64,000 nt of DNA from an uncultured Actinomycetota bacterium (GCA_963756705.1 CAVWOS010000009.1:18120-82119), one strand, 5' to 3'. Positions 42,572 to 58,283 are shown, counted from the first letter of the stretch. Numbers and translations are program-made. Notes: generated from the sequence alone by a model not told the origin.

Positions 42572-45500
42572 TCACAAGGAGGAGGGGACGGCCCACACGC
42601 ATTTGCCGTGCTCGGTGTATCGGGTGCCCCAGCGTTTGGCGGCCGCTGCGGCGACGAGTTGCAGGCCGCGCCCGAACTCGTCGCTGAGGTGGGGGTGGCG
42701 TACGCGCGGGGTGGCTTCGCTGCCGTCGTAGCACTCCACGATCGCGGTGCCGTCCAGGTTCAGCAGCCGCAGCCGGATGATCTCACCATGCTCGCCGGGG
42801 ACATCGCCGACGTCGATACCGCGGGCGTAGCGGACTGTGTTGCCGACCAGTTCGGAGACGATCAGTTCCGCGGATTCGGCTACGTCGGTCAGGCCCCAGC
42901 CGGTCAGGGTTCGTGCCACAGCGCTGCGGGCGGTGGCGGCGGATTCGGCGGTGCGGGGCAGGTCCCAGGATGCGATGTGCCCGTCGGGTACGCGGCGGGT
43001 GCTGGCCGCCAGCACGGCCGCGTCCGCGGGGCGTCCGTGCAGCAGGTCGCCGGTGATCGCCTCGCACAATCCGGTCAGCCACGCTTCGGTGCTGGCGGCA
43101 GGGACGGGCGTGGCCGTGGTGTGGCGGTGGATCGCCTCGATCACGGGGTCGGCGTCTTCGTCGGGGTGGTCGTGCAGGCCGGTGTGGAGCACGAGCACCG
43201 CCCCGTCGGGCAGGGTGGTTTCGGCGACTTCAGCGGGGAGGGTGGCGATGCCGATGGGGTCGCCGACGGGCACGGCCAGGACGGTGGGGTCCGCGCCCGG
43301 CGCCAGCAGGATCGGCGGGGGGTGGCCGGCCGATGCCATCGCGCAGTGGCCGGTGGTGGCGTCGTACTCCACCAGCAGGCAGGTGGCGGTCACTGCCGGG
43401 CCGCGCCGGCTCAGGCGCAGGGCGGAGTCGGTCAGGTGGGCGAGGATCTCGTCGGGGGGCAGGTCTTGTTCGGCGTAGGTCAGTACGGCGTGGCGCAGGA
43501 TGCCCATGGTGATGGCGGCTTCCAGGCTGTCGGCGATGCTGCGGACGTCGCCGGCGACGAGCAGGGTTCGCCCGCCGGGCCTGCGGATGGTGTCGGACCA
43601 GTGGCCGGCCAGCTGCCCGGCGGTCCGGTAGAGGGCGGCTGCGGTCATGCCGATCAGCGGGCCCGGTCGGCCGGGCAGGAGTTCGGCTTCCAGCCGGTCC
43701 GCGCGGTGCCGGGTCTCCTCGTAGGCTGCGGCGCGTTCCAGGGCCTGGGCCAGGACCAGGGCGATGGTGCTCAGCACTGCGGTGTCGTCCCCGGCGACCT
43801 TGCGCGGCTTCGTCCAGCTGATCACGCACGACCCCACGCGGCGGCGGCCTGCCGTCACCAGTGGCACCATGGCCCATGCCCGCTTGCCGCCGCGTTCCGC
43901 CAGCGGCAGCAGCCACGGCCAGCGGTTCCCGAACTCCTGGAGTCCTTCGACAACCTGCGGTGGTCCGTTGACGGCGATGCCGGCCTCGGCCCGCTCGGGC
44001 CAGGCAAGCGTCTTCAGGCCGGTCACGAAGTCGTCGCTGTAGCCGTGGATACCGGCCAGCCGCGGCGCGGGGCCGGTCAGGTCGTGCAGGATCAGTCCGT
44101 CCGCGCCCATCAGGGGCAGCAGGTGGTCGGCGACTGCCTGCACCACGTCGGGGACCTCCCACGCCCCCGCCAGGGCCCGGTGGAAGTCGGCCAGCCGGCG
44201 GTTTCGCTCGGCTTTGGCCTGCTCGGCGTGGGTCTGCTCGGTGATATCGGCGCCGGTCACGGCGACATAGCCGCCGATGTCGACCGCCCGGAGCCGGTAG
44301 TAGGCGGTCCGGCCGCCGCGGGACTTCTCAGGCGCGGACGCGATGCTGGTGACCGGGACGCCGGGGGTGGCACGGGCCCGCTCTATCAGCTCGGGCATGC
44401 CCTGCTTCTTCAGGGCCGGCACTGCTTTCCACGGCACCCGGCCCGCGAGGGCGACGCCCTCACGCTCTGCCAGGGCGGCCGCCGCGCGGTTGAGCCAGAG
44501 AACCTCGTTGTCCCGGCCCAGTATGTATTGCGGATCGGGGTGGGACTCCATCAGCCCGACCAGCCACGTCCCTTGACCGTGCCGCGCGGTGACGTCGCAG
44601 GCCGTGCCCTCCATACGCACCGGCTCGCCGCCCCCGTCGACCACGAACCGGGCCTGCAGCTCCAGCCACGAGACCCGCCCCTCCCGGTCGGTCACCCGGT
44701 ACTCCACGAGATACGGGCGGAGATCGTTCATGCTGCGCTCGATGGCCCGATCGACCCCGGGACGATCATCAGCGTGGATACGCGCCATCCAGCCCTCGAT
44801 ACGCCGGTCCCAGGTGGCCGGGTCCAGGCCCGCCAGACGGACCAGTCCCTCGATCGTCCGGTCTTTGAGGTCGAGCAGGCCGGTACCCAGATCCCACGAC
44901 CACTCACCCACCCCGGCCCTGTCCACGGTGGTGGATACGGCCGGGGTCTGCCGCCACGGCGGCCGGCCGGTCAGCCGGCGGTGCGCGGTCGGCAGCCGGG
45001 CGGACACCACCGCGGCGATCCGGGCCACGTCCTGTTTCCGTCGGCTGTCCGGCTCGCCGTCCGACAGCATCACCAGCACCGACAACGCCCCCACCGGGGC
45101 CCCGCCGCTGGTCAGCGGCACCGACCACACGCCCACCGGCGGCGCGGCGAGTGGGTCCGGCCAGGCGGTCGACCAGGAGGCTTGGCCCAGAACAGCGGCG
45201 CGGACCGGTGCGAGAGCGGTCCCTGTCGACGCCAGCACGTCCCACTGGCCGGCCTCGTCGGTCGATAGGCCACAGACCGCCGTCAGCTGCCAGGTGTCCC
45301 CGTCCCGTCCCGCCAGGTGCGCCATGGCACCCACACCGTCGGCCGCCAGGGCCGCGCTCTGCACGGCGCGCCGCAGCAGCTCGGCCTCGTCCGCGTCGGC
45401 GTCGGCGGTCAGCCACCGCAGCCGCCGCCGCATCTTGTCCGTGATGCCCGGGGGCGCAGGTATCTCCGGCTCGCGGAGCGCCACTGTGATCACCTCCACC

Positions 45501-45628
45501 GCCCCTGATGGGCGGATCATTGCTGGAGGGCCAGGAACGGGGCAGCCACGATGTTGTCGGTGGCGCCCGAGCGAGCGACCGGGAGGCGTGGAAGAGGAGG
45601 GCTCTACCGGTTCGCTCGCGACGTGCAC
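42572..45628 (-). CDS. second GAF-PAS-SpoIIE-HATPase protein with degenerate phosphatase motifs (start uncertain)
   Basis: IHADDR PAS, SELVGN..DEFGRGL; GHWSDT, AGDVRS and LHTGL replace GGDWYD, GDVMGH and YTDGL. Confidence 0.85.
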   Translation of the reverse strand: MHVASEPVEPSSSTPPGRSLGRHRQHRGCPVPGPPAMIRPSGAVEVITVALREPEIPAPPGITDKMRRRLRWLTADADADEAELLRRAVQSAALAADGVGAMAHLAGRDGDTWQLTAVCGLSTDEAGQWDVLASTGTALAPVRAAVLGQASWSTAWPDPLAAPPVGVWSVPLTSGGAPVGALSVLVMLSDGEPDSRRKQDVARIAAVVSARLPTAHRRLTGRPPWRQTPAVSTTVDRAGVGEWSWDLGTGLLDLKDRTIEGLVRLAGLDPATWDRRIEGWMARIHADDRPGVDRAIERSMNDLRPYLVEYRVTDREGRVSWLELQARFVVDGGGEPVRMEGTACDVTARHGQGTWLVGLMESHPDPQYILGRDNEVLWLNRAAAALAEREGVALAGRVPWKAVPALKKQGMPELIERARATPGVPVTSIASAPEKSRGGRTAYYRLRAVDIGGYVAVTGADITEQTHAEQAKAERNRRLADFHRALAGAWEVPDVVQAVADHLLPLMGADGLILHDLTGPAPRLAGIHGYSDDFVTGLKTLAWPERAEAGIAVNGPPQVVEGLQEFGNRWPWLLPLAERGGKRAWAMVPLVTAGRRRVGSCVISWTKPRKVAGDDTAVLSTIALVLAQALERAAAYEETRHRADRLEAELLPGRPGPLIGMTAAALYRTAGQLAGHWSDTIRRPGGRTLLVAGDVRSIADSLEAAITMGILRHAVLTYAEQDLPPDEILAHLTDSALRLSRRGPAVTATCLLVEYDATTGHCAMASAGHPPPILLAPGADPTVLAVPVGDPIGIATLPAEVAETTLPDGAVLVLHTGLHDHPDEDADPVIEAIHRHTTATPVPAASTEAWLTGLCEAITGDLLHGRPADAAVLAASTRRVPDGHIASWDLPRTAESAATARSAVARTLTGWGLTDVAESAELIVSELVGNTVRYARGIDVGDVPGEHGEIIRLRLLNLDGTAIVECYDGSEATPRVRHPHLSDEFGRGLQLVAAAAAKRWGTRYTEHGKCVWAVPSSL

Positions 45629-45952: not shown

Positions 45953-46306
45953 TCACAGCTCCGCGGGCCTGCATGCGTCTGTAGAGGGGCAGGGGCCGGA
46001 AAGGACGAGGTTGAGCAGGCCGGGGAAGCGCTGCCCGAACTCGTCCTGGCGCAGCCGGTTGACGCGGTAGGGGCCCTTGTCGCGCTGCTCAAGCAGGCCG
46101 GCGCTGCGCAGTACGGCGAAGTGGTGGCTTCCGCTGCTCTTGTCGACGGGGAGGTTGAGGGAGCCGTTGGTGTGGTGCCAGTCGGGGGCCGCGGCCAGGG
46201 TACGGATGATGGCCAGCCGTACCGGGCTGGAGAGGGCGGCCAGGGCCTGGTGCAGTGGGACGTGCCGGGGGTGGGTGTGGTGGGCCGGCCGGCGCGGCCC
46301 GGTCAT
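45953..46306 (-). CDS. ArsR/SmtB-family regulator
   Basis: LAALSSPVRLAII..KSSGSHHFAVLRSAGLL..RFPGLL. Confidence 0.85.
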   Translation of the reverse strand: MTGPRRPAHHTHPRHVPLHQALAALSSPVRLAIIRTLAAAPDWHHTNGSLNLPVDKSSGSHHFAVLRSAGLLEQRDKGPYRVNRLRQDEFGQRFPGLLNLVLSGPCPSTDACRPAEL

Positions 46307-46626
46307 GAGGTGGTGCCGGGCGGCAGGCCGTCGGCGATGATCAGTTGGCGGTCGAGGGGGGTGTGGAGGGCTTGGAGGGCCTTGGCGTAGGCCGGTGAGG
46401 TGTACCAGCGGTGTGCGGTGGCGGTGTCGGGGAATTCGATGATGACGATGCGCAGGTGGGGCGCGGGGGCGGCGCCTTCCAGGGTCTCGGGGCGGGCGTC
46501 GCGGCCCAGGTATCGGCCGCCGTGCTCGGCGACGGCGGCTGCGGCGAGCGGCTTGTAGGCGGCGAGGGCTTCGCGGGCGGTCGGGTCGGTGGGTATGTGG
46601 ACGTGTGAGATCACGTATGCGGGCAT
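46303..46626 (-). CDS. DUF1330-family protein
   Basis: MPAYVI..HGGRYL..LEG..IVIIEFPD..AHRWYTSPAY. Confidence 0.85.
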   Translation of the reverse strand: MPAYVISHVHIPTDPTAREALAAYKPLAAAAVAEHGGRYLGRDARPETLEGAAPAPHLRIVIIEFPDTATAHRWYTSPAYAKALQALHTPLDRQLIIADGLPPGTTS

Positions 46627-46627
46627 G

Positions 46628-47535
46628 TCAGGCTTCCTCATGCGGGGGTTGATGGGTCGTGACCGGTCCGGGGATGACGTCGCCTCGGATGCGGCCGATG
46701 AGGGCCCCGGTGCCGGAGTCGAGCACGCCGGGAGCGTCAGTGCGCGGGCAGGACGAAGCGGTAGCCGGAGCCGGTCAGTCGCTGCAGGGCGGCGACCTCT
46801 TGGGCGAGGCACGGGGTGAAGTTGGCGGTGGTGGCGGGTGCGGCGGGGTCGAGGTAGCCCGGCTGCATGCGGGCGGTGGGGGTCTGGTCCGGGTGGTGCA
46901 GCAGGGCCGCGTCCAGGTCGTAGACGAGGTCGCCGCACAGGCAGGCGGTGCCCTCGGCGGTGGTGACGGTGATGCTCATCGACCCGGCGGTGTGGCCGCC
47001 GGTGGCGTAGCAGGTGATGCCGGGCAGGATCTGGAGCGGCCCGCTCTCGTCGAGGTCGAGCAGCCGAAGCCCCCCTGCGTGAGAGGCGGTCCACCAGGTG
47101 GTGCAGGTCGTCCTTGGCGTAGGCCAGGCTCTGCAGGCCGCCGAAAGCCGCGCCCATCTCGGCGCGGTGGACGATGACCGGGACGTCCATGGGGATCTCG
47201 TCGAGGTGTCCGGCGTGGTCGCGGTGCAGGTGCGTCATGAGGACGCAGTGCAGGTCGGCGGGCGTGATGCCGTGGGCGGCGAGTTGGGCGTGGAATTCCT
47301 GCTCGGGCAGGATCTCGCCCCCGCTGCCCAGGACGGACGGGTCGCGGTAGCCGGCATCAACCAGAATCGGGCCGCTGGGTCCGCCGGTGATGAGGTAGCC
47401 CTGGGCCGGCACTGTCGTGACGGTGCCGGGCTTACGGCCCCGGACCAGCCCAGCTTTGTCGATGACGACCGACCCGAAATTCAGGCGGTGGATGGTGTAC
47501 GCGGGCGCGCCGGTGGTGCCGGTATCGGCCTTCAT
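46628..47535 (-). CDS. metallo-beta-lactamase-fold N-acyl-homoserine lactonase-like hydrolase (2 frameshifts)
   Basis: ILVDAG, THLHRDHAGH (HxHxDH), GGHTAGS, GDLVY, PAH. Confidence 0.8.
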
Positions 47536-47564
47536 AGTGCGATTCCTATCGGTCTGAGTCGATA

Positions 47565-48269
47565 TCAGAAGTATGTCGGATTCCGCACCGGCGATGTCCG
47601 TGACGGGCTCGGCCACGCCGTCACGGATGACGTAGCCGCGGTCGCAGACCCCGGCGAGCAGTTGCGTGTTCTGGTCGACCAGCAGCAGTGCTACGGCGCT
47701 TGCTCCGGTGACGGCGGCGAGCGCGGTGGTGATGTCCAGGGCCGCCCTGGGGGACAGCCCGAGGCTGAGCTCATCGACCATGAGCAGCGTCGGCTGGGCC
47801 ATCAGTCCGCGGGCGATGGCGAGCATCTGCTGCTCGCCGCCGCTGAGCTGTCCGGCCCGGCGGCCGGACAACTCCCGCAGCCGGGGGAAGATGCTCCAGC
47901 ACGCTGTCCAGCACGCCGGTCTCCGGCCGGGCGACGGCTGCCGCCCCGTAGCGGAGGTTGTCCAGGACGCTCAACTCCCGGAACACCTGCCGGCCCTCCG
48001 GGACGTGGACGATGCCGGCGCGGGCGACGTCCTCGGGGCGGGCGGGCAGGGAACGCCCGGCGGACAGCGCCCGCTCGCAGGTGCGGGGGATCACCCCGGA
48101 CAGGGCGCGCAGCAGGGTGGTCTTGCCGGCCCCGTTGAGCCCGCCCACCCCGACGATTTCGCCCGGCGCGATGCGGATGTCGACGCCGCGCAGGACTTGG
48201 ACCGGGCCGTATCCGGCGTGCAGACCGGCCACGTCCAGGACCGGGTCGGGCAGCGGGTTGGCGGATCAT
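47565..48269 (-). CDS. livF: LivF-like ABC ATPase (frameshifted)
   Basis: GLNGAGKTT, HVPEGRQVF, LSGGEQQM, DELSLGL. Confidence 0.85.
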
Positions 48270-50153
48270 TGGACGGCCTCCGGTCGGGCGTCGGGCAGGG
48301 ATGCGGGGCCGCGTTCGGGGCGGTCCCCGGTGAACACCTCGCGGACCGCGGGGAGATCAAACACCTCGCGGGGCGGGCCGGAGGCGAGGACGGTGCCAGC
48401 GGCCAGGAGCGGTGACGGTGCCGGCGACGTCCCGGACCCAGCCGACGTGGTGGGAGACCACGACGATGGTGCGGTGGGCACGCAGGGCCGCTATCAGCGC
48501 GGACACCGCGGCCATCTCGGGCGCACTCAGGCCCGCGGTCGGCTCGTCCATCACCAGCAGGGGCGCGCCGGTGGCCACGGCGCGGGCGATGTCGGTCATC
48601 TTGGCCTCGGCCAGGGACAGGTCGCGTGCCGGGATGTGGTGCCGGCCGGGCGGGATGCCGACCAGGCCCAGCGCGTCGGCGGCGGCACGGCGGGCGGCAC
48701 GCTCGCCGGCGCGGCGGGGGCGGACGAGGTCGGGGAGCAGCCGGGCCGTCCGGCCGGATGCCCCACCCCGTGGGACGCCCAGCGAGACGTTGTCCAGCAC
48801 GCTCAAGTCCCCGGCCAGCGCCACGTTTTGGAAGGTTCGGGCCACTCCCGCGCGGGCGGCCGGTGTGCCGGGTGTGACCGGCCGGCCCAGGACCTCCACG
48901 CACCCCGCCTGAGCGGCCGCCAGGCCGCTGATGACGTTCAGCAGGGTGGTCTTGCCGGCCCCGTTGGGTCCGACCAGGGCGTGCACGGTGCCGGAGGTGA
49001 CGGTCAGGGCGACCCTGTCCAGGGCGTGCACACCGCCGTAGCTGACGGTCAGCCCGTCGACCGCCAGGACGGTATGGCCGGCAGTAGCGCCGGGGGCGGT
49101 GCCGGCCGGTGCGGGGATCACAACCGGGTCCTGGCCCGGCCCCTGGCGCGGGTCCTGGGTTCGCCCGGCCCTGGCGGCACGGCGCGGGCGGTGGGTGTGC
49201 AGCGTCCGTAGCAGGGGGTCCAGCAGCAGCCCGAACAACCCGCGGGGAAACAGGACCAGCATCGTGAGCAGCAGCGCGGCGACAATGATGTCCTGGTAAG
49301 ACTGCGCGCCCTGCAGATAGTTGGGAGTAACGGTGATCAGCAGCGCGCCCAGAATCGGTCCGGCGATGCTGCCCAGTCCGCCGACGGCCGCCATCGCGAA
49401 AAGGACGATGGACTGCTGGACAGCGAAAGATTCTGGGGCGATGTAGCCGGCGCCGATGGCGATGAGGACACCGGAGGCGCCGGACAGCGCGGCGGAGAAG
49501 GTGAACGCGGCCAGTTTGGTGCGCTGCGGCCTGGCCCCGAGGGCCTGCGCGGCGGTCTCGCTGCGCCGGACCAGGCGCAGGGCGTGCCCGGACCGGGAGG
49601 CGCTGTAGTTGCAGGAGATGATGACCGCCACGAGCAGGACTGCCGTGCACAGGTAGTAGTAGCCGCGGCCCTGGCCCAGGTCGGTGGAGCCCAGGCGGGG
49701 CGCGATGACCTGCAGCCCGGAGGCGGCGTGGGTCCAGGAGGCGAGCGTGGTGCCGGACAGCGCCGCGGTGACCGCGACGGCCAGGAAGAACGTGCCGAGG
49801 ATGGCGCCGAATTCGCGCAGACGCAGCAGTGCCAGGCCGGTGACCGCGCCGAGGACGGCGGCCGCGGCGACGGCGCCGAGAGCGGCCACGGCGGGGGCCA
49901 GGCCGGCCCGCCCCGACAGGATGGCGTAGGTGTAGGCGCCCACGCCGACGAATCCGGCGTGGCCGAAGGACGGCTGACCGAGGACGCCACTGAAAATGTC
50001 CAGACCGACGGCGGCAACGGCCCAGGCCATCGCGGTCGCGACCAGGTACTGGGCGGTCGGGGTCAGGGGCAGCAGCCCGATGACGGCCAGGACGGCGACC
50101 AACGTCAGCGCGGCCGGCCGGGTACCGGTGCGGGCCAGGGGTGTCAGCATCAT
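48266..50153 (-). CDS. LivM-LivG fused ABC permease/ATPase
   Basis: GQPSFGHAGFVGVGAY permease motif plus GPNGAGKTT and DEPTAGL. Confidence 0.88.
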
Positions 50154-50166
50154 GATGGGCCTCCGG

Positions 50167-51036
50167 TCACAGCCGCTCGGATACGGCCTCGCCCCACAGG
50201 CCGTGGGGGCGGACCAGCAGGGTGGAAAGGAAAAGGCCGAAGACGGCCAGGAGGGCGAGGTCGGCGCTGCCGCTGGCGTAGTAGACAAGGCCCTGGACCA
50301 GGCCGACCGCGACCCCGCCGGCGAACGCCCCGCTGAGGCTGGTCAGTCCGCCGATGACGACGGCGGCGAACACGAACAGCAGCTGGTCGTCCATCATCTG
50401 GGCCGACAGCAGGTGGGACGGTGCGGTCAGGATGCCCACGCCCGCGGCCAACGCCGTGGTCACCGCCCACGACATGACCTCCAGGCGGCGCACCCGCGCG
50501 CCCAGAAGCCGGGCCGTGGCCCGGTCCGAGGCCACCGCGCGCAGCAGCAGCCCGGTGCGCGAGAACCGGAACCACGCTGCGAATACGGCGGCGAGGAGCG
50601 CGGCGACGGCCAGGATGCCCAGCCCCGCCACCGGCACGTGCAGCGGCCCGAGGGCTGCCTGCCGCGCCGGGAACACCTGGGGGGCGGTGAACGGCTGGCC
50701 CTGGCCCAAGCCTTTGTCGATCGCGGCGCCGGCCAGCAGGTACAGCCCCAGGGTCCGGACCGTCAGATTCAGCGGCCCCGCGGTGTCGTGAGGGCGCATC
50801 ACCACCAGGTAGACCACCGCGCCCACCGCGCTGAGCAGGACCAGCGCCGCCACGATGGCCACCGCAAGGCCCACGCCGTGGCGGGTCAGCTCATAGACGG
50901 CGACGGCCCCCAGCGTGGCCAGGCTCCCCGCCGCGAAATTCGCGATACCGGTCATTTTGTACAGCAGCACGATCGCGAATCCGAGCAGCCCGTACAGCAG
51001 GCCGCTGATGGCCCCGGTGATGATCGCGTCACTCAT
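50167..51036 (-). CDS. livH: LivH-like branched-chain amino acid ABC permease
   Basis: GLLYGLLGFAIVLLYKMTGIANFA, TGLLLRAVA..ARLLG, IGGLTSL. Confidence 0.88.
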   Translation of the reverse strand: MSDAIITGAISGLLYGLLGFAIVLLYKMTGIANFAAGSLATLGAVAVYELTRHGVGLAVAIVAALVLLSAVGAVVYLVVMRPHDTAGPLNLTVRTLGLYLLAGAAIDKGLGQGQPFTAPQVFPARQAALGPLHVPVAGLGILAVAALLAAVFAAWFRFSRTGLLLRAVASDRATARLLGARVRRLEVMSWAVTTALAAGVGILTAPSHLLSAQMMDDQLLFVFAAVVIGGLTSLSGAFAGGVAVGLVQGLVYYASGSADLALLAVFGLFLSTLLVRPHGLWGEAVSERL

Positions 51037-52266
51037 CGCACGCCTCCCTTCGGGTCAGGGTCCGGAGGGGACCGGCAGGGTCCCGGCCGTGGTGAAGCGG
51101 CCGTCGGCCAGGCGCAGCAGGTACATGTGGTCCAGGCCCATGTGATTGCCGGCGCTGAAGCTGAGCGGGGGAGTGACGTCCGATACCGGTCCGTGCAGGG
51201 ATTCCAGGGCGTGCTGGAGCGCGGCGGGCGTGGGGTGGTCACCGGCCCGGGTCAGCGCCGCGACGAAGACTTGCGCGGCGGCGCATCCGTACAACGCGGT
51301 CGCGTCCGGAGTCGTATGCGGCTGGTACTTGTGCAGGGCCGCCAGGCAGCGCTTGGCGCGGGGGTCGCTGACCGCGACGGTGGGTGAGGCGACCTGCAGA
51401 AGTCGGGCGGCCTGCGGGGTGAGCGCGCCCGCGAAAGCCTGGCTGCCCAGCACCGACACGCCGAGGATGCCCTTGGTGGGCAGGTGCCCGGCGCCTGCCA
51501 TCGTGTTGAGCATGCGGGCCGCGTCGGGCGCCAGCACGGTCAGCATCAGGTAGGGCGCGTGCGCCGAACTCGCCTTGACCGCGGCCTCCTGGACGGGTGC
51601 GCTGGCGGCCGGCAGCAGCTCCGTCCCGGCCAGGGACCCGTGCGCCGCGATTGGCCGCGGCCAGAGCCGCCGCCTGGTCGTCCTGATAGCCGGGTATCTC
51701 CGTGGTCACCGCGTACACCGGGCCCGGGCCGCCCCGGGCCAGCGCGCTGGGGATCAGCGCCCGCGCCTGGTCACTGTAGAGGGGCAGCAGGGAGAAGATG
51801 TTCGACTGGCGGGTCAGCCCAGGGAGTGCCGCGTACGGGAAGAGATACGGCAGGCTGGTCCCCTGCACCATGCTGGCGATGGTGGCCGCGGTCACCGTGC
51901 CGCACCCTCCGACCAGCGCGGCCACGCCCCGCGACGCAGGGTCCGTACATTGGCCGCGGCCCGCGGCGCTTGATAGCCGTCGTCCAGCACCACGTCGTGG
52001 ATCGTGCGGCCGTGTACCCCGCCGGTAGCGTTGACCTGGGAAAACCATGCTTGGGCGCCGGCCGAGGTCGGCGCGCACACCGATGCGACCGGTCCGGTCA
52101 GCGCCGTGGAGGTGCCCACGGTGATCGTCGTGGAGGTGACTCCCGCACCCCCCGACCCCGCTCTGCCCGCACCCGTGCTGTTCCCCGCCGAGCACGCGGC
52201 GGCCAGCGCCACCGCCGACACCACGGCCAGGGCGGCCGGTATCCGCCGCCGTACGATCCGGATCAC
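51033..52266 (-). CDS. LIV-type ABC substrate-binding lipoprotein (frameshifted)
   Basis: lipobox LAAAC, ALTGP, VNATGGVHGR..DDGY. Confidence 0.8.
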
Positions 52267-52770
52267 TGTTCTGCCCCCTGTCGGGCCTCGACGGCCGCCA
52301 TCGCCGCCGCCTCCTGGCCCCAGTACGGGCCCTTGTCGACCCAGTGGCTCGGCACCAGGTCGGCAGCCTGCTCGTCGTCGTCGAGCAGGCGCGGGGCCGT
52401 CACGCCGTCCAGGAGCAGGCCGGGCGCGTGGGCCTCGATCAGCTCGCACGGCATCTTGCTCGCCGTGATTCCACGCCCAGTGCACCGCCCACGGCGGGAT
52501 GCGCAGGAAATCGCCCGGCTCAAGATGGAACGCCTCCACCGCCGGCTGCCCGCCGCTGACCGGCGACCTCGACGAACACCCACAAGGGCCGGCGGTCAGG
52601 TAGTTGAGCTGCTCGCAGCGGTGCGTGTGCGGCTCACTGTGGTAGCCCGCCGAGCGGGTCGCGACGGTCAGGCTCGACTCCTGCCCCACCACCTGCGCGG
52701 TCCGCAGCTCCCCGCCTCCCCGCATCGTGACGACCTGCCCTGGATTGTCTTCTGCTCCGACGTACAACAC
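52263..52770 (-). CDS. cupin-domain protein (frameshifted)
   Basis: PHTHRCEQLNY..LEPGDFLRIPPWAVHW. Confidence 0.75.
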
Positions 52771-52884
52771 GGCGGCTCCCTCAGATGTGATGTGTAGTGA
52801 TGAGGCGGTATGTGACGATGTGTTGGGTGTGGGTGTCCCGAACTGCGGCCGGGAAAGGGGGGTGACCGCCGCGGTGCGGCGGCC

Positions 52885-53892
52885 TTACACCGCCCGCGGT
52901 GCGATGCGGACGACGTACTTGCCTGAGCCGCGGCCGTCGGCCAGGCGGTCGTGGACCTCCGGCACGTCCTCCAGATCGGCGAGCCGCGTAAGGGGGATGT
53001 CCAGCCGGCCGGCCGCTATCAGATCCAGCACCCGGCGCAGGGCCGAGGCGACTACGCCCGGGGCCTGGACGGACAGGCCCCGATGGCTGAATCCGCTGAT
53101 GGTCAGGGTCCGGCCGATCAGCTCGCCCACCCCGGGCAGAGGTGTCTGCGGGCCGGCCGGCCCGGGAGCGTTTCCGAACAGGACCAGGCGCCCCGGGGCA
53201 GACAGCATCGCGGTGTCGGCCTCGACCATGCTGGTGCCCAGCGGGTCGAGCACCGCATCCACGCCCCGCCCCCCGGTGGCCGTCAGCACCGCATCCACCA
53301 GGCCGGAGCCGCGGGGGATGATCACGTCGTAGCCGGCCTTCATGGTCGCGGCGGCCCTGGTCTCGTCGGGCCGGCCGGTGGTCCCGATCAGCAGCCCGCC
53401 CCCCAGGACACCCACCAGCCGGGCCACCGCCGTGCCCACCCCGCCCGCGGCGGAGTGGACGAGGAGCCGGTCGCCCGGCCTGAAATCGGCGAGGTCCAGC
53501 AGCAGCAGCGCCGTGGTCATCCCCAGCGGCGCCGCCGCAGCCATCCCGGCCGGTACTCCCCGGGGCACCGGCACCACGAGCCCGGCGTTGGCGACCGCGA
53601 CCTCCGCAAGCCCGCCGCCGGGCGTCACAGCCGCCACCCGCTGACCGCAGGTCAGCTCCCCGACGCCCGCCCCGATCTCACGGACCGTGCCCTCCACCTC
53701 GGCACCGGCCACCCACGGCCAGCCGGTGGCGTAGCCCTGGTCACCGCGGCGCCCCATGACATCAATAAAGTTCACCCCGGCGTACGCGACGTCGATGGTG
53801 ACCTCGCCCGGTCCCGGGGACGGGCTGTCCATCCCACGGACAGCCGACCGTTCAGACCCGCCCGGGGCCTCCATCACCAGAGCCCGCATCAC
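52885..53892 (-). CDS. zinc-type alcohol dehydrogenase family NADPH:quinone oxidoreductase
   Basis: AGVNFID, HSAAGGVG, GRGVDAVLD, GKYVV. Confidence 0.9.
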   Translation of the reverse strand: MMRALVMEAPGGSERSAVRGMDSPSPGPGEVTIDVAYAGVNFIDVMGRRGDQGYATGWPWVAGAEVEGTVREIGAGVGELTCGQRVAAVTPGGGLAEVAVANAGLVVPVPRGVPAGMAAAAPLGMTTALLLLDLADFRPGDRLLVHSAAGGVGTAVARLVGVLGGGLLIGTTGRPDETRAAATMKAGYDVIIPRGSGLVDAVLTATGGRGVDAVLDPLGTSMVEADTAMLSAPGRLVLFGNAPGPAGPQTPLPGVGELIGRTLTISGFSHRGLSVQAPGVVASALRRVLDLIAAGRLDIPLTRLADLEDVPEVHDRLADGRGSGKYVVRIAPRAV

Positions 53893-54259
53893 CGGTCACC
53901 CCGGAAGTCCCGATCGGAGAATGGGCGGCCTTGTCCCAGGCGTCGCGGATCGCCTGCTCGATCGCTTTCGCGCCCTTGCCGCCGATGTACTGCTTGTCGA
54001 TGAGGCTGATGAGCGGTGTCAGGTCCCCGCAGATATTGGCACCCGTGAGCAGCTCGGAGATCCACTTCCTGACCAGATCCGTCTGTGCATTGGAGCCCAC
54101 GCTGAGAATCTCGCCTGTGTCCGGATCGACCTTCAGGGTGATATTGAGCATCACACCGGCAGCGCCCGTCGCGGAGTACCCGCTGGCCTGCGCGTAGCCA
54201 ATGACCAGCCACCCGGGATTCCGACCGAGATTGAAATTCGCCGGATTGCGATTCGTCAT
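53852..54259 (-). CDS. DUF3870-like protein
   Basis: GYAQ..LKVDPDTGEIL..KAIEQAIRDAWDK pattern. Confidence 0.65.
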   Translation of the reverse strand: MTNRNPANFNLGRNPGWLVIGYAQASGYSATGAAGVMLNITLKVDPDTGEILSVGSNAQTDLVRKWISELLTGANICGDLTPLISLIDKQYIGGKGAKAIEQAIRDAWDKAAHSPIGTSGVTGDAGSGDGGPGRV

Positions 54260-54395
54260 GCTGGCAGGATGCCACGCGGATGACGCATACGGGAGCACAT
54301 AGACGCGCCCCGCGGCGCCACCGGTAATCAGGGAAAGAGAGAAGAGTAGCCACGATGCCACCTGGGCGCACAAGGCGCGGTCACGGCGGCGCACC

Positions 54396-54902
54396 TGCGT
54401 CACCGGACAGGAGCACGTGATCTGGTGTGAGCAAGGTGCGGGAATCTGCCCCGGCCCTGCTGCACGACCACCGTGGCCTGCCGATGCCGGTGACCGTACC
54501 GCCGCCGGGACGCCCGCGCAATACACCCCGCCCGGAAAACACACCGCGCCCCGCCGGGAACCCGGAGGACAGCCTCCGGCACCACACCACACCACACCGC
54601 ACACGGCGCGGGCTCCGCCCAACTCGGCAGCCCGGGGGGAGGAAATCCATATTGGACGCTTCCGGAAGCGGCCTTCCGCAAAAGTCTTTGACAGCAAGCA
54701 GCCTCGTCGGTAGCCCGTGTCACAGTGCGGAAGTGCGATGGCGGTGAATCCATCTTTCCGGCTGCGATGTATTGCAGGGGCGTCCCGGCGGGGGGTACGG
54801 TCACCGGCATCGGCAGGCCACGGTGGTCGTGCAGCAGGGCCGGGCGTCATTGCCCGCCACCTTGCTCACACCAGACCACGTGATCACCTGTCCGGTTGCG
54901 CA
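54396..54902. repeat. about 130-bp inverted repeat arms (54396-54524 / 54769-54902) with a 50-bp identical core; third partial copy at 55108-55173
   Basis: core 54451-54500 is the exact reverse complement of 54794-54843. Confidence 0.9.
54688..54716 (+). promoter_or_regulatory. sigma70-type promoter candidate inside the IR spacer
   Basis: TTGACA-17 nt-TAGCCC; palindrome CGCTTCCGGAAGCG just upstream. Confidence 0.4.
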
Positions 54903-55220
54903 TTACGCGCCGCCGTAACCCGCGCCCCGGTGCCGTAGGAGATGTGGCCTGCTGCCATTCTCTGAGAGGTACCGGGGCGTGGTCCGTCGGTATGCCCCCG
55001 TGCACCCTCGCGCAGCACATCAGGCGGGTTGAAACCTCGTATTTCAGGGTCATTGCGCCAGCAGTGCGGGCGGAGTAGCGTAATACCTGAATCAGGACAT
55101 AGTGACCGTGCAGCAGGGCCGGGCGGTTCCCGCACCTTGTGCACACCAGATCACGTGCTGCCTGCCGGTGACGTAGTGCGCGCCACCGGGACCCGCGCCG
55201 ATGCGCGCCCAGGTGACATC

Positions 55221-55796
55221 GTGACTGTCTTCATTCCCATTCGTACCCGCGTCGGCGGGTTCGGGCTGCGCCGCTCCAGCCGGATAGTCCTGCCCGAGAC
55301 CGACCACCGCCCCGTTGCCACCGCCCGCCGCCACACCCGCACCACCCTGGGCGCCTGGGGGCTGCCCGGCGACGTGGTCGACAGCGCGGAACTCGTGGTC
55401 AGCGAGCTGGTGACCAACGCCCAGCGTTACGCCCCCGGGCCGGTGGCGCTGCGGCTGACCCTGCGCCGCACCGGCCGTGAGGGCCGTGAGCTGACCGTTG
55501 CCTGCCGCGACACCGATCCCCACCCCCCGCCCGCCACCGGCGCCGACGCCGTGGATGGTCCTTCCTGCGCCCAGGCCGAATCCGGGCGCGGCCTGGCCAT
55601 CGTCGAGGCTCTGTGTCACCATCGCGGCTGCGCTGTCGCCCGTGCCCACAAGACGGTCTGGGCCGCCCTCACCGTCCCCGCTGCGCCGGCGAGCCCGCGG
55701 CCCGTCCCGGTGGCCCGCCGTGGACGGGGCAGGGCCCTGCACCTGCCGGCCCGCACCCGCCGACCCGCCCCGGAGCAGCCGGGCTGCGCCGCGTGA
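55221..55796 (+). CDS. HATPase_c ATP-binding protein (RsbW-like anti-sigma/kinase)
   Basis: AELVVSELVTNA, ESGRGLAIV, KTVWA. Confidence 0.88.
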   Translation: MTVFIPIRTRVGGFGLRRSSRIVLPETDHRPVATARRHTRTTLGAWGLPGDVVDSAELVVSELVTNAQRYAPGPVALRLTLRRTGREGRELTVACRDTDPHPPPATGADAVDGPSCAQAESGRGLAIVEALCHHRGCAVARAHKTVWAALTVPAAPASPRPVPVARRGRGRALHLPARTRRPAPEQPGCAA

Positions 55797-55864
55797 CGGC
55801 CGACCCGCCGGCAACAACTCGCCCTGTTCACACGCAACGACGCGTACCGTCCGGGAGCCGCCCC

Positions 55865-57901
55865 ATGACCACCCCGCCCGCGCCCACCGACACGCCCGAG
55901 CCGCTGTGGAGCCCCGGACCCGAGCGGATCGCCGGCGCGCGGCTGACCCGGTTCCACGACTGGGCGGCCGGCGCCCACGGCGCCCCCGCCGCCCGGCCGG
56001 GCGACCCGCAGGGCAGCTACGCCGACCTGCACGCCTGGTCGGTGGACGAGCCGGCGGCGTTCTGGCGGGCGATCACCGAGTGGTTCGACGTCCGCTTCTC
56101 CAGCCCGTACGACACGGTGCTCGCCGACCCGGCGATGCCCGGCGCCCGCTGGTTCCCCGGTGCGACCCTCAACTACGCCGAACACGCGCTGCGCCCCGCC
56201 GAAGACCCCGACCGGGCCGGGCAGCCCGCGCTGCTCCACCTGGACGAGCGGCACGAGACCGGCACCGTGAGCTGGGCGGAGCTCAGCGGCCAGGTCGCCG
56301 CCCTCGCCGCGGAACTGCGCCGCCTCGGCGTCACCCCCGGCGACCGGGTCAGCGGCTACCTGCCCAACGTCGCGCAGGCGGTCGTCGCCCTGCTGGCCAC
56401 CGCGGCGGTCGGCGGCGTGTGGACCTCCTGCGCCCCGGACTTCGGCGCCCGCAGCGTCCTGGACCGCTTCCAGCAGGTCGAGCCGGTCGTGCTGTTCGCC
56501 GTCGACGGCTACCGCTACGGCGGCAAGACCCACGACCGCACCGCCGCCGTCGCCGAACTGCGCGCCGGGCTGCCCACGCTCCGGGCCACCGTGCACATCC
56601 CGCTGCTCGGCACCCCGGCCCCCGAAGGCGCCCTGGAATGGGACCGGTTGACCTCGGGCGAGGCGGAACCGGCCTACGAGCAGGTGCCGTTCGACCACCC
56701 GCTGTGGGTGCTGTACTCCTCGGGCACCACCGGACTGCCCAAGGCCATCGTCCAGTCGCAGGGCGGCATCCTGCTCGAACACCTCAAGCAGACCGGCCTC
56801 CACCTCGACCTCGGCCCCGGCGACCGCTTCTTCTGGTACACCTCCACCGGCTGGATGATGTGGAACTTCCTCGTCTCCGGCCTGCTCTCCGGCGCCACAG
56901 TGGTCCTCTACGACGGCAGCCCCGGCTTTCCTGACGTCTCCGCGCAGTGGCGGGTGGCCGAACAGACCGGCACCACCGTCTTCGGCACCTCGGCCGCGTA
57001 CGTCATCGCCTGCCGCAAGGCCGGCATCCACCCCGGCCGCGACCTGGACCTGTCCGCGGTGGGCTGCGTGGCCACCACCGGCTCACCGCTGCCGCCGGAC
57101 GGCTTCCGCTGGCTGCACGACGAGGTCGCCCGCGACCTGTGGATCGCCTCGGTCAGCGGCGGCACCGACGTGTGCAGTTGCTTCGCGGGCGGCGTGCCGA
57201 CACTGCCGGTCCACGTCGGCGAACTCCAGGCCGCCTGCCTGGGCACGGATCTGCAGGCGTGGGACGCCCAGGGCCGGCCGGTGACCGACGAGGTGGGGGA
57301 GCTGGTGGTCACCAACCCGATGCCCTCCATGCCGATCCGCTTCTGGAACGACCCGGACGGGGCCCGCTACCGGGAGAGCTACTTCGAGATGTTCCCCGGC
57401 GTGTGGCGGCACGGCGACTGGATCACGCTGACCTCGCGCGGCACCGTCGTCATCCACGGCCGCTCCGACTCCACCCTCAACCGCCAGGGCGTGCGCATGG
57501 GTTCGTCCGACATCTACGAGGTCGTCGAACGCCTGCCGGAGATCCGCGAATCCCTCGTCATCGGCATCGAGCAGGCCGACGGCGGCTACTGGATGCCGCT
57601 GTTCGTGCAGCTCGCCGACGGCGCCGTGCTCGACGACCCGCTGGTCGACCGTATCCGCACCGCGATCCGCGCCCAACTCTCCCCGCGCCACGTGCCGGAC
57701 GAGGTCATCCCCGTGCCCGGCGTGCCGCACACGCTCACCGGCAAACGGATCGAGGTGCCGGTCAAGCGGCTGCTCCAGGGCACCCCGCTGGACAAGGCCG
57801 TCAACCCCGGCTCGGTGGACGACCTCGGGGTGCTGCGCTTCTACGAGCGGCTCGCCGCCGAACGCGCCGACGCCGACACGGGCAGGTCAGGCACGGCGTG
57901 A
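55865..57901 (+). CDS. aacS: acetoacetate-CoA ligase
   Basis: YSSGTTGLPKAIV AMP-binding motif, SVSGGTDV, WRHGDW, GRSDSTLNRQGVRMG. Confidence 0.92.
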   Translation: MTTPPAPTDTPEPLWSPGPERIAGARLTRFHDWAAGAHGAPAARPGDPQGSYADLHAWSVDEPAAFWRAITEWFDVRFSSPYDTVLADPAMPGARWFPGATLNYAEHALRPAEDPDRAGQPALLHLDERHETGTVSWAELSGQVAALAAELRRLGVTPGDRVSGYLPNVAQAVVALLATAAVGGVWTSCAPDFGARSVLDRFQQVEPVVLFAVDGYRYGGKTHDRTAAVAELRAGLPTLRATVHIPLLGTPAPEGALEWDRLTSGEAEPAYEQVPFDHPLWVLYSSGTTGLPKAIVQSQGGILLEHLKQTGLHLDLGPGDRFFWYTSTGWMMWNFLVSGLLSGATVVLYDGSPGFPDVSAQWRVAEQTGTTVFGTSAAYVIACRKAGIHPGRDLDLSAVGCVATTGSPLPPDGFRWLHDEVARDLWIASVSGGTDVCSCFAGGVPTLPVHVGELQAACLGTDLQAWDAQGRPVTDEVGELVVTNPMPSMPIRFWNDPDGARYRESYFEMFPGVWRHGDWITLTSRGTVVIHGRSDSTLNRQGVRMGSSDIYEVVERLPEIRESLVIGIEQADGGYWMPLFVQLADGAVLDDPLVDRIRTAIRAQLSPRHVPDEVIPVPGVPHTLTGKRIEVPVKRLLQGTPLDKAVNPGSVDDLGVLRFYERLAAERADADTGRSGTA

Positions 57902-57929
57902 CCGCAGGGCACCCAGCACCCCGGGCGCG

Positions 57930-58283
57930 CTACCCCTGGGGCGCGGTCTCCTCGCGCAGCACGAGGGCCAGCAGGCCGGGGAAGCGCTCCTCCAGTTCCT
58001 CGCGGCGCAGCCGGTTGAATCGCCACACCCCGTCGTCGCGCTGCTCCAGCACACCGGCCTCCCGCAGCACGGCGAAGTGGTAGCTGAGGTCGGCCTTGTA
58101 GACCGGCACGTCGAACGAGCCGCAGGTACGGGACCAGTCGGGGCTGCCGCCGAGCTCGCGCACGATCGCCAGACGCACCGGATCGGCCAGCGCAGCCAGG
58201 ACCCTTTGCAGCGGCACGTCCCGGGGATGGACGTGCGTGGGCAGGGTGCGCCCCCGGTTGGGTCGGGGCGCCTTCGCCATCAT
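57930..58283 (-). CDS. ArsR/SmtB-family regulator (paralog of 45953..46306)
   Basis: HPRDVPLQRVLAALADPVRL..SYHFAVLREAGVL..RFPGLL. Confidence 0.85.
   Translation of the reverse strand: MMAKAPRPNRGRTLPTHVHPRDVPLQRVLAALADPVRLAIVRELGGSPDWSRTCGSFDVPVYKADLSYHFAVLREAGVLEQRDDGVWRFNRLRREELEERFPGLLALVLREETAPQG

Follow-up and report, generated by a model that had tools for sequence, protein, structure and literature searches.

We analyzed a window of 64,000 nucleotides from an uncultured Actinomycetota bacterium (GCA_963756705.1, CAVWOS010000009.1:18120-82119), the whole stretch being referred to as the window, and focused on positions 45953 to 58283. A single minus-strand operon, running from ~54280 down to 45953, encodes in this order a DUF3870 protein, a reductase of the medium-chain dehydrogenase/reductase (MDR) superfamily, a cupin, an ATP-binding cassette (ABC) importer of the LIV type (binding protein, LivH, LivM-LivG and LivF), a lactonase-like hydrolase of the metallo-beta-lactamase (MBL) fold, a DUF1330 protein and the regulator ArsR1. 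To the right of the operon lie a repeat block, a HATPase_c_2 gene, the acetoacetate-CoA ligase gene aacS on the plus strand and a second regulator gene, ArsR2, on the minus strand (Table 1). The G+C content of the window is 72%, which makes raw lists of open reading frames (ORFs) useless, and genes were called from frame plots of third-position GC (GC3), Pfam and NCBIfam searches, and tblastn with intact orthologues. A preliminary description had presented the region as an ArsR-bracketed catabolic island; as an observation this holds with corrections, all the gene families that it named being found in place by Pfam and NCBIfam models.

Table 1. Features of the region, with positions counted from the first nucleotide of the window.
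Feature	Position	Strand	Basis and remarks
ArsR1	45953-46306	-	HTH_20 and NF033788 matches; last cistron of the operon
DUF1330 protein, 107 aa, intact	46303-46626	-	PF07045, 75.8 bits (gathering score 23)
Lactonase-like MBL hydrolase, ~290 aa, over three frames	46628-47505	-	tblastn of L009, L010 and L011 orthologues; best models and structures AiiA-like
LivF-type ABC ATPase, two +1 frameshifts	47565-48241	-	Pfam, tblastn
LivM permease-LivG ATPase fusion	48266-50150	-	BPD_transp_2 and ABC_tran in one ORF
LivH-type permease, intact	50167-51036	-	PF02653; 69% identity to L009 LivH over its full length
Peripla_BP_6 substrate-binding lipoprotein with LAAAC lipobox, over three frames	51055-52266	-	Pfam pieces 1-64, 67-160 and 161-342 in three ORFs
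Metallocupin, 155 aa, His-x-His...Glu...His, three frameshifts	52263-52770	-	Pfam, tblastn, family alignment
MDR-superfamily reductase, NAD(P)H quinone/ene-reductase-like, 335 aa, intact	52885-53892	-	ADH_N and ADH_zinc_N matches
DUF3870 protein, first gene of the operon	~53852-54280	-	PF12986, 43.5 bits (gathering score 22)
Three-copy repeat block without coding signal	54348-55226	.	Repeat comparison, GC frame plot
HATPase_c_2 gene, small, RsbW-like anti-sigma/kinase, upstream of aacS	~55290-55796	+	PF13581, 44.8 bits
aacS, acetoacetate-CoA ligase, intact	55862-57901	+	TIGR01217, 1015.7 bits (cut-off 520.9)
ArsR2	57930-58283	-	HTH_20 and NF033788 matches; convergent with aacS

The genes of the operon are tightly packed. 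The ATG of ArsR1 overlaps the stop codon of the DUF1330 gene (ATGA) and the GTG start of the binding protein overlaps that of the cupin (GTGA), these two overlaps constituting translational coupling within the operon; in addition, the MBL stop ends 1 nt before the DUF1330 start, and the 3' end of the DUF3870 gene overlaps the start of the reductase. Because of its ATGA overlap with DUF1330, ArsR1 is the last cistron of the operon and not an outside boundary. Over 93 residues, ArsR1 and ArsR2 share 62% identity, which makes them paralogues, as had been proposed. The two genes do not form a mirror-image boundary: ArsR2 is convergent with aacS and no DNA-level repeat is common to the pair, so that ‘bracketed’ is a descriptive term only.

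The operon has counterparts in other actinomycetes. Searching a set of 5.8 billion proteins with the N-terminal fragment of the MBL hydrolase returned 92 full-length relatives (~283 aa, 59-72% identity), the named ones all from actinomycetes. The comparison set comprised 26 loci annotated by tblastn and cited here by number, namely seven contigs encoding MBL relatives and 19 genome loci from a related-loci search. Nine loci have an architecture that we call type A, [ArsR][QOR QOR] GntR-cupin-SBP-LivH-LivMG-LivF-MBL-DUF1330 (QOR, quinone oxidoreductase; SBP, substrate-binding protein), with AacS directly downstream in three of them, and 12 loci have type B, cupin-MFS-DUF3870-MBL-QOR-QOR (MFS, major facilitator superfamily). 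An Actinomadura locus (L013) and the window have hybrid architectures, the window carrying both DUF3870 and DUF1330, the latter 50% identical to its L009 orthologue in the same position. About 26 loci outside the window thus have in common a core of cupin, importer (MFS or LIV), DUF3870 or DUF1330, MBL hydrolase and one or two reductases. Of the 26 loci, 25 combine cupin and MBL hydrolase, and six (L013, L014, L023-25 and L039) have an ArsR belonging to the subfamily of the window proteins, 41-46% identical to ArsR1; AacS is found in four of about 26 (L009, L010, L023 and L024). From this recurrence of ArsR and AacS we conclude that the link of ArsR to the operon, and more loosely that of AacS, is real and not peculiar to one genome. 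Literature searches for DUF3870, for DUF1330 with a lactonase, and for clusters of cupin, lactonase and quinone oxidoreductase found no study of this operon. Overall, judged by these alignments and gene orders, the operon is an unstudied but widely conserved actinobacterial system. We also observed that the type-B operon occurs at ~16-37 kb and at 9.61-9.63 Mb of one 9.67-Mb Amycolatopsis plumensis contig (L035 and L036), with the same identity and layout, which suggests either terminal inverted repeats of a linear chromosome or an assembly overlap.

The enzyme on which earlier interpretation had rested is the HxHxDH lactonase-like hydrolase, and its recognition proved correct. The motifs HLHRDH, GGHTAG, GDLVYD and PAH occur in the window over three frames and are invariant in a 25-sequence family alignment. 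The protein retains HxHxDH, His171, Asp192, Tyr195 and His253 (family alignment and alignment to AiiA), so that the AiiA ligands HxHxDH, His169, Asp191 and His235 and the catalytic Tyr194 all have equivalents, and its gene is in one operon with the importer. Searches of NCBIfam and the PDB matched it best to AiiA (E 3e-9), 4-pyridoxolactonase, AttM and a dihydrocoumarin-hydrolase ancestor; lactonases, and not unrelated MBL hydrolases, are thus nearest, a placement made by curated hidden Markov model scores and structure matches. An intact orthologue (P0018) scores 61.7 bits against the AiiA family NF045699 (cut-off 375), 39.8 bits against the AttM/AiiB family NF045700 (cut-off 390) and 46.4 bits against the 4-pyridoxolactonase family NF047925 (cut-off 325), while the window fragments reach 47.1 and 16.6 bits against NF045699. 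The frame-split N-terminal part falls slightly below the gathering score of PF00753 (21.1 vs 22.7), a domain for which 90 of the 92 full-length relatives have a precomputed match. By these scores, the hydrolase is assigned to the lactonase branch of the superfamily, outside all curated lactonase families.

These results bear directly on the function first proposed for the locus, that is, the import and destruction of N-acyl homoserine lactone (AHL) or gamma-butyrolactone/butenolide signals, as quorum quenching or eavesdropping, with the carbon passed on to acetoacetyl-CoA. AHL lactonases are indeed the nearest characterised relatives of the hydrolase (AiiA, at the E value given above), and the Asp191/Tyr194 pair of AiiA is conserved; moreover, opening the ring of an A-factor-type lactone gives a beta-keto acid, which would be a fitting substrate for an AacS-type ligase. 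However, we found nothing specific to such signals: the scores are 6- to 10-fold under every curated AHL-lactonase cut-off, 4-pyridoxolactonase and the dihydrocoumarin-hydrolase ancestor match almost equally, and an amidase for the acyl-homoserine product is missing. In addition, the hydrolase is fixed in a multi-enzyme operon, and known quorum-quenching lactonases need neither the dedicated importer nor the cupin and pair of reductases that are conserved with it. The family label does not predict the substrate either, as illustrated by BxdA of the Microbacterium bxd cluster, which is labelled ‘N-acyl homoserine lactonase family’ and, as described by Thoenen et al. (2024, PMC11297187), acts by opening MBOA (6-methoxy-2-benzoxazolinone), a benzoxazolinone of plants; given that substrate, ‘AHL lactonase family’ is of little guidance. 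We therefore consider a role in signal destruction very unlikely.

The other products of the operon were likewise compared with known families and structures. The importer is of the HAAT/LIV type with all five modules present (Peripla_BP_6, two BPD_transp_2 permeases and two ABC ATPases), in an order identical to that of nine other loci; three of its four genes are frameshifted in the assembly. LivM and LivG are fused, with 580-640 aa, in every ABC-type version of the operon (L009, L010, L013, L023-L030, L038, L041 and the window), orthologues of 582-609 aa being among them, and ABC and MFS importers are interchangeable between the architectures. For the binding protein, solved structures include no close relative whose ligand is known. 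In the cupin, the residues H49, H51, E54 and H89, invariant in the family alignment, make up a 3-His-1-Glu metal site, and the AlphaFold model (predicted local distance difference test, pLDDT, 95.5) has the Mn cupin TM1459 and KdgF as its closest structures; the fold search as a whole returned generic small Mn cupins and was uninformative on function. The reductase scores 165.7 bits against TIGR02824 (PIG3-type quinone oxidoreductase; cut-off 296.8), its best PDB matches being PIG3 and zeta-crystallin-type reductases and 2-haloacrylate reductase. Finally, the DUF3870 protein is divergent (38-40% identity to orthologues) and modelled, at pLDDT 87, as a three-strand, three-helix alpha+beta domain, whose fold resembles IscU and flavoprotein C-terminal domains generically (Foldseek E of at least 3e-3; Z 9.3, root-mean-square deviation 3.2, 97 aligned residues); none of the Cys ligands of IscU is present in it.

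Regarding regulation, both ArsR proteins have the winged-helix HTH_20 domain. They score 40.1 and 43.2 bits against NF033788, below its cut-off of 55 bits, and neither has a metal-site CxC motif (such as ELCVCDL), so we regard them as ArsR-fold regulators that are probably not metal sensors. The operon-linked subfamily in the six loci is 41-54% identical, has the RFPGLL motif in common and is likewise without the CxC site. It has a conserved single Cys within (P/T)CG(S/T)F, present as TCGSF in ArsR2, which could sense electrophiles. The control region likely lies in the gap upstream of the operon occupied by the repeat block, which is a candidate promoter/operator region; a sigma-70 promoter scan found none, and terminator-like matches were near shuffle expectation. 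This block and the HATPase_c_2 gene have to be added to what had been listed between the operon and aacS. The three related copies measure 130-190 bp, one being inverted and two direct; an arm pair of 54 nt within the block is 98% complementary. The copies look like partial duplications of the 5' region of the HATPase ORF, with which the third copy overlaps. As a separate observation, a PAS-PAS-GAF-PP2C(SpoIIE)-HATPase_c_2 protein of 1018 aa (42572-45628, minus strand) adjoins ArsR1 on the left, and together with the RsbW-like HATPase_c_2 gene it places partner-switching-type signalling parts on both sides of the operon; a HATPase_c_2 gene also adjoins the cluster in the Streptomyces locus L010.

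A central question is whether the operon is functional, since its reading frames are broken in the assembly. The preliminary description had rightly noted that the lactonase needs correction, at what turned out to be two frameshifts, but there are ten across five genes, nine located by tblastn with the orthologues of the Nonomuraea locus L009 and the tenth, at the end of LivF, by the C-termini of its orthologues. Three affect the cupin (near 52590, 52540 and 52460), two the binding protein (near 51930 and 51660), one LivMG (a +1 shift near 48410, affecting the last ~40 codons and splitting the tblastn match into 1-566 and 567-595), two LivF (near 47890 and 47580) and two the MBL hydrolase (a G6 run near 47080, and an extra T at 46747 that creates a TGA immediately downstream of the final metal-binding His). 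Of these shifts, eight act like +1 insertions, and neither nonsense substitutions nor deletions were found in the five genes. The fragments are 50-74% identical to the Nonomuraea proteins, the same as the unbroken genes, and both GC3 and amino-acid conservation are undiminished across the frameshifted genes. A translational fusion of LivF to the MBL hydrolase was also considered and rejected: the LivF orthologues end in YF* in nine of nine cases, and TYF followed by a stop is present in the window one base out of frame, so that the native ending is recovered after removing one base.

Natural pseudogenisation was the initial reading of these events, with the island taken for a decaying, non-functional plasmid remnant of no present use to its host. 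Several features are in agreement with it: the ten frameshifts fall in five genes, with no break in the flanking aacS, in LivH, in the reductase or in the 1018-aa PP2C gene, some indels lie outside homopolymers, the genome has no second copy of the operon, and among the larger contigs the one that carries the window, C9, ranks first for the rate of frame-switch junctions and last for coding signal. This reading was downgraded after a chromosomal control. A GC3-based screen gave a genome background of ~1.5-3 frame-switch junctions per 100 kb and ~28 local clusters, one of which, in the conserved chromosomal region C15:141.5-148.5 kb, was checked. Pfam domains are split between frames in that region, and C15:144300-147200 (L016:2800-5700), which covers an aldolase_II-SDR (short-chain dehydrogenase/reductase) fusion gene and its neighbour, has ~25 genome-specific single-base insertions in 3 kb, located identically in the comparisons with three relatives of the same genus, of which two (L020 and L021) have two intact high-GC3 ORFs and one (L022) only the first. 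Such a pattern reflects errors of assembly or polishing. The frameshifts of the island, most of which carry the same +1 signature, are therefore most likely assembly errors as well, a conclusion that we hold with high confidence, and the operon is thus probably intact and functional in the organism. The unimpaired conservation, the lack of nonsense substitutions and deletions, and the ~28 similar candidate clusters across the genome, one of them checked, all argue against decay, which we regard as unlikely. The same screen found further same-strand frame switches without a stop in the window, at ~1246, 18157, 28813, 33911, 36296 and 37741, and these may be assembly errors of the same kind and not biology. 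The assembly therefore contains unpolished patches with single-base insertions, and apparent pseudogenes or frameshifted genes of this genome, others in the window among them, are unsafe to interpret as biology without the reads.

We then considered the origin of aacS and of the operon beside it. The window AacS matches TIGR01217 over model positions 3-650 of 652, at a score above the equivalog cut-off, and is a full member of the family to which AacS of Streptomyces belongs. A second, chromosomal aacS (C15:959802-961844) is 88% identical to it in DNA and 88.8% in protein; moreover, the window protein shows 86-89% identity to the chromosomal copies in the genus, the C15 one included and those of seven relatives at 86-88%, and is 52-60% identical to operon-linked AacS elsewhere. 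Whereas AacS of L009, L010, L023 and L024 lies inside the operon, the window gene is an extra copy on C9 beside it, and by these identities seems to be a housekeeping gene that was duplicated or recruited. The outlet to acetoacetyl-CoA that had been proposed is therefore upheld in part: acetoacetate-CoA ligase is a recurrent neighbour of the operon family, but the gene in the window is a near copy of a chromosomal one. At the DNA level, aacS gave the only matches to genomes of the same genus. The MBL family was found in none of 62 other genomes of the genus and none of 400 sampled genomes of the family (E<=1e-40), PLSDB plasmids held no near-identical intact copy (megablast), and the best match in the protein set is 72% identical over the N-terminal part of the hydrolase. 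Contig C9 also carries parA and is probably a plasmid. The absence of the MBL family from the genus and family genomes searched and the position of the operon on a contig with parA indicate that the operon is a rare horizontal acquisition on a plasmid-like contig.

Altogether, the conservation of an importer, a metallocupin, a lactonase-like hydrolase and one or two reductases argues for the stepwise catabolism of an imported ring compound. We favor, with moderate confidence, the explanation that the window carries, by horizontal acquisition, a copy of a conserved actinobacterial operon for the import and catabolism of a putative small ring compound, and that this operon is probably functional, its frameshifts being most likely artefacts. 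In such a pathway, the LIV-type ABC system, or the MFS carrier in the other architecture, would import the compound; the metallocupin and the MDR reductase(s) would perform an oxidative or isomerising step and the reduction of a C=C bond or quinone; and the AiiA-like dinuclear-metal hydrolase would open a lactone-type bond (cyclic ester or carbamate). DUF3870 and DUF1330 may be small accessory or isomerase-like proteins. The occasional presence of AacS suggests a beta-keto acid product, which that ligase would activate, and the operon-encoded ArsR1 would act as a non-metal, ArsR-type repressor of the operon. Nevertheless, several points weigh against this explanation. AacS is missing from most loci, and the window aacS lies on the opposite strand, split from the operon by the repeats and the HATPase gene, and copies a housekeeping gene, so that it is tied to the operon less firmly here than in L009, L023 and L024. 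Furthermore, the literature searches found no studied member of the operon family, and the order of the steps is one that we infer; the IscU-like match of DUF3870 points to no function. As to the frameshifts, their density in the island (ten in ~6 kb, with a clean mid-stretch of 2.6 kb) is below that of the verified error patch, and two of the ten events are not +1.

It is also conceivable that the substrate to be detoxified or catabolised is a heterocycle of plant or fungal origin, or a quinone or hydroquinone, and not a simple lactone, the reductases acting on a quinone or unsaturated ring, the cupin as a ring-cleaving dioxygenase and the hydrolase on the resulting lactone or cyclic carbamate. 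The reported action of BxdA on benzoxazolinones provides a precedent within the Actinomycetota (PMC11297187), the cupin has a complete metal site and a likeness to oxidative small cupins, and the reductase is similar to quinone reductases of the PIG3/zeta-crystallin type and to 2-haloacrylate reductase. Moreover, the single conserved Cys of the ArsR subfamily could respond to electrophiles, and the regulators adjoining the core vary (HxlR, TetR, MerR and GntR), as is usual in xenobiotic operons. The monocupin dioxygenase NaaB and the lactonase NaaC, which reportedly act together in 5-nitroanthranilate breakdown, offer a further analogue, as does CbaA, which reportedly also acts on benzoxazolinones. 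However, the likeness to BxdA, CbaA and NaaC is one of reported function, and in the 26 annotated loci the core is not accompanied by conserved genes for aromatic ring hydroxylation or extradiol cleavage. This possibility is a sub-case of the import-and-catabolism explanation and not a true alternative to it, and in its specific form it appears to us doubtful. With similar reserve, we can speculate that the core represents an undescribed pathway in which a lactone-type natural product (e.g., a butenolide or gamma-butyrolactone hormone of Streptomyces, or an unsaturated lactone from a plant or fungus) is imported and converted to acetoacetate, with DUF3870 and DUF1330 as new enzymes, an electrophile- or ligand-sensing ArsR switch, and spread by conjugative plasmids.

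Returning to the import-and-catabolism explanation, the operon is an uncharacterised form of an ordinary regulated system of this kind. If the operon family is as it seems, it gives a genomic context, and hence a route to function, for DUF3870 and DUF1330, and does the same for a large clade of the ‘AHL lactonase family’ whose annotation is probably misleading. Among known systems, the AiiA-type AHL lactonases (Bacillus AiiA, PDB 2a7m, 3dha and 5eht) have the same MBL fold, dinuclear-metal ligands and Asp-x-x-Tyr pair, and AiiA is the best match to the window MBL family among solved structures. It differs in sequence (~25-30% identity), in length, the window-type hydrolase being ~30 residues longer, and in context, as AiiA is a stand-alone gene whereas the window-type gene always has an importer, a cupin and reductases as operon partners.

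The bxd cluster resembles the operon in a different way, BxdA (to which CbaA of Pigmentiphaga is related) being an actinobacterial lactonase-family protein in a catabolic cluster with oxidoreductases and regulators. The cluster is reported to comprise 15 genes, including those of an aldehyde dehydrogenase and a VOC (vicinal oxygen chelate) protein, and the main text of Thoenen et al. (2024, PMC11297187) describes no set of cupin, DUF3870, DUF1330 and LIV genes for it; the likeness of BxdA to the window hydrolase is one of annotation and gene context. Our results would add to the BxdA case in suggesting that soil-actinomycete lactonases of this label serve ring-compound catabolism rather than quorum quenching. 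Lastly, AttM, encoded by the attKLM operon of Agrobacterium (gamma-butyrolactone catabolism), and 4-pyridoxolactonase (vitamin B6 degradation) are both among the top model matches of the hydrolase. The organization is the same, with an MBL lactonase that serves as one step of a short catabolic operon and is no dedicated quencher of signals, but their partners are semialdehyde and hydroxy-acid dehydrogenases, in contrast to the cupin, MDR reductases and DUF proteins of the window operon.

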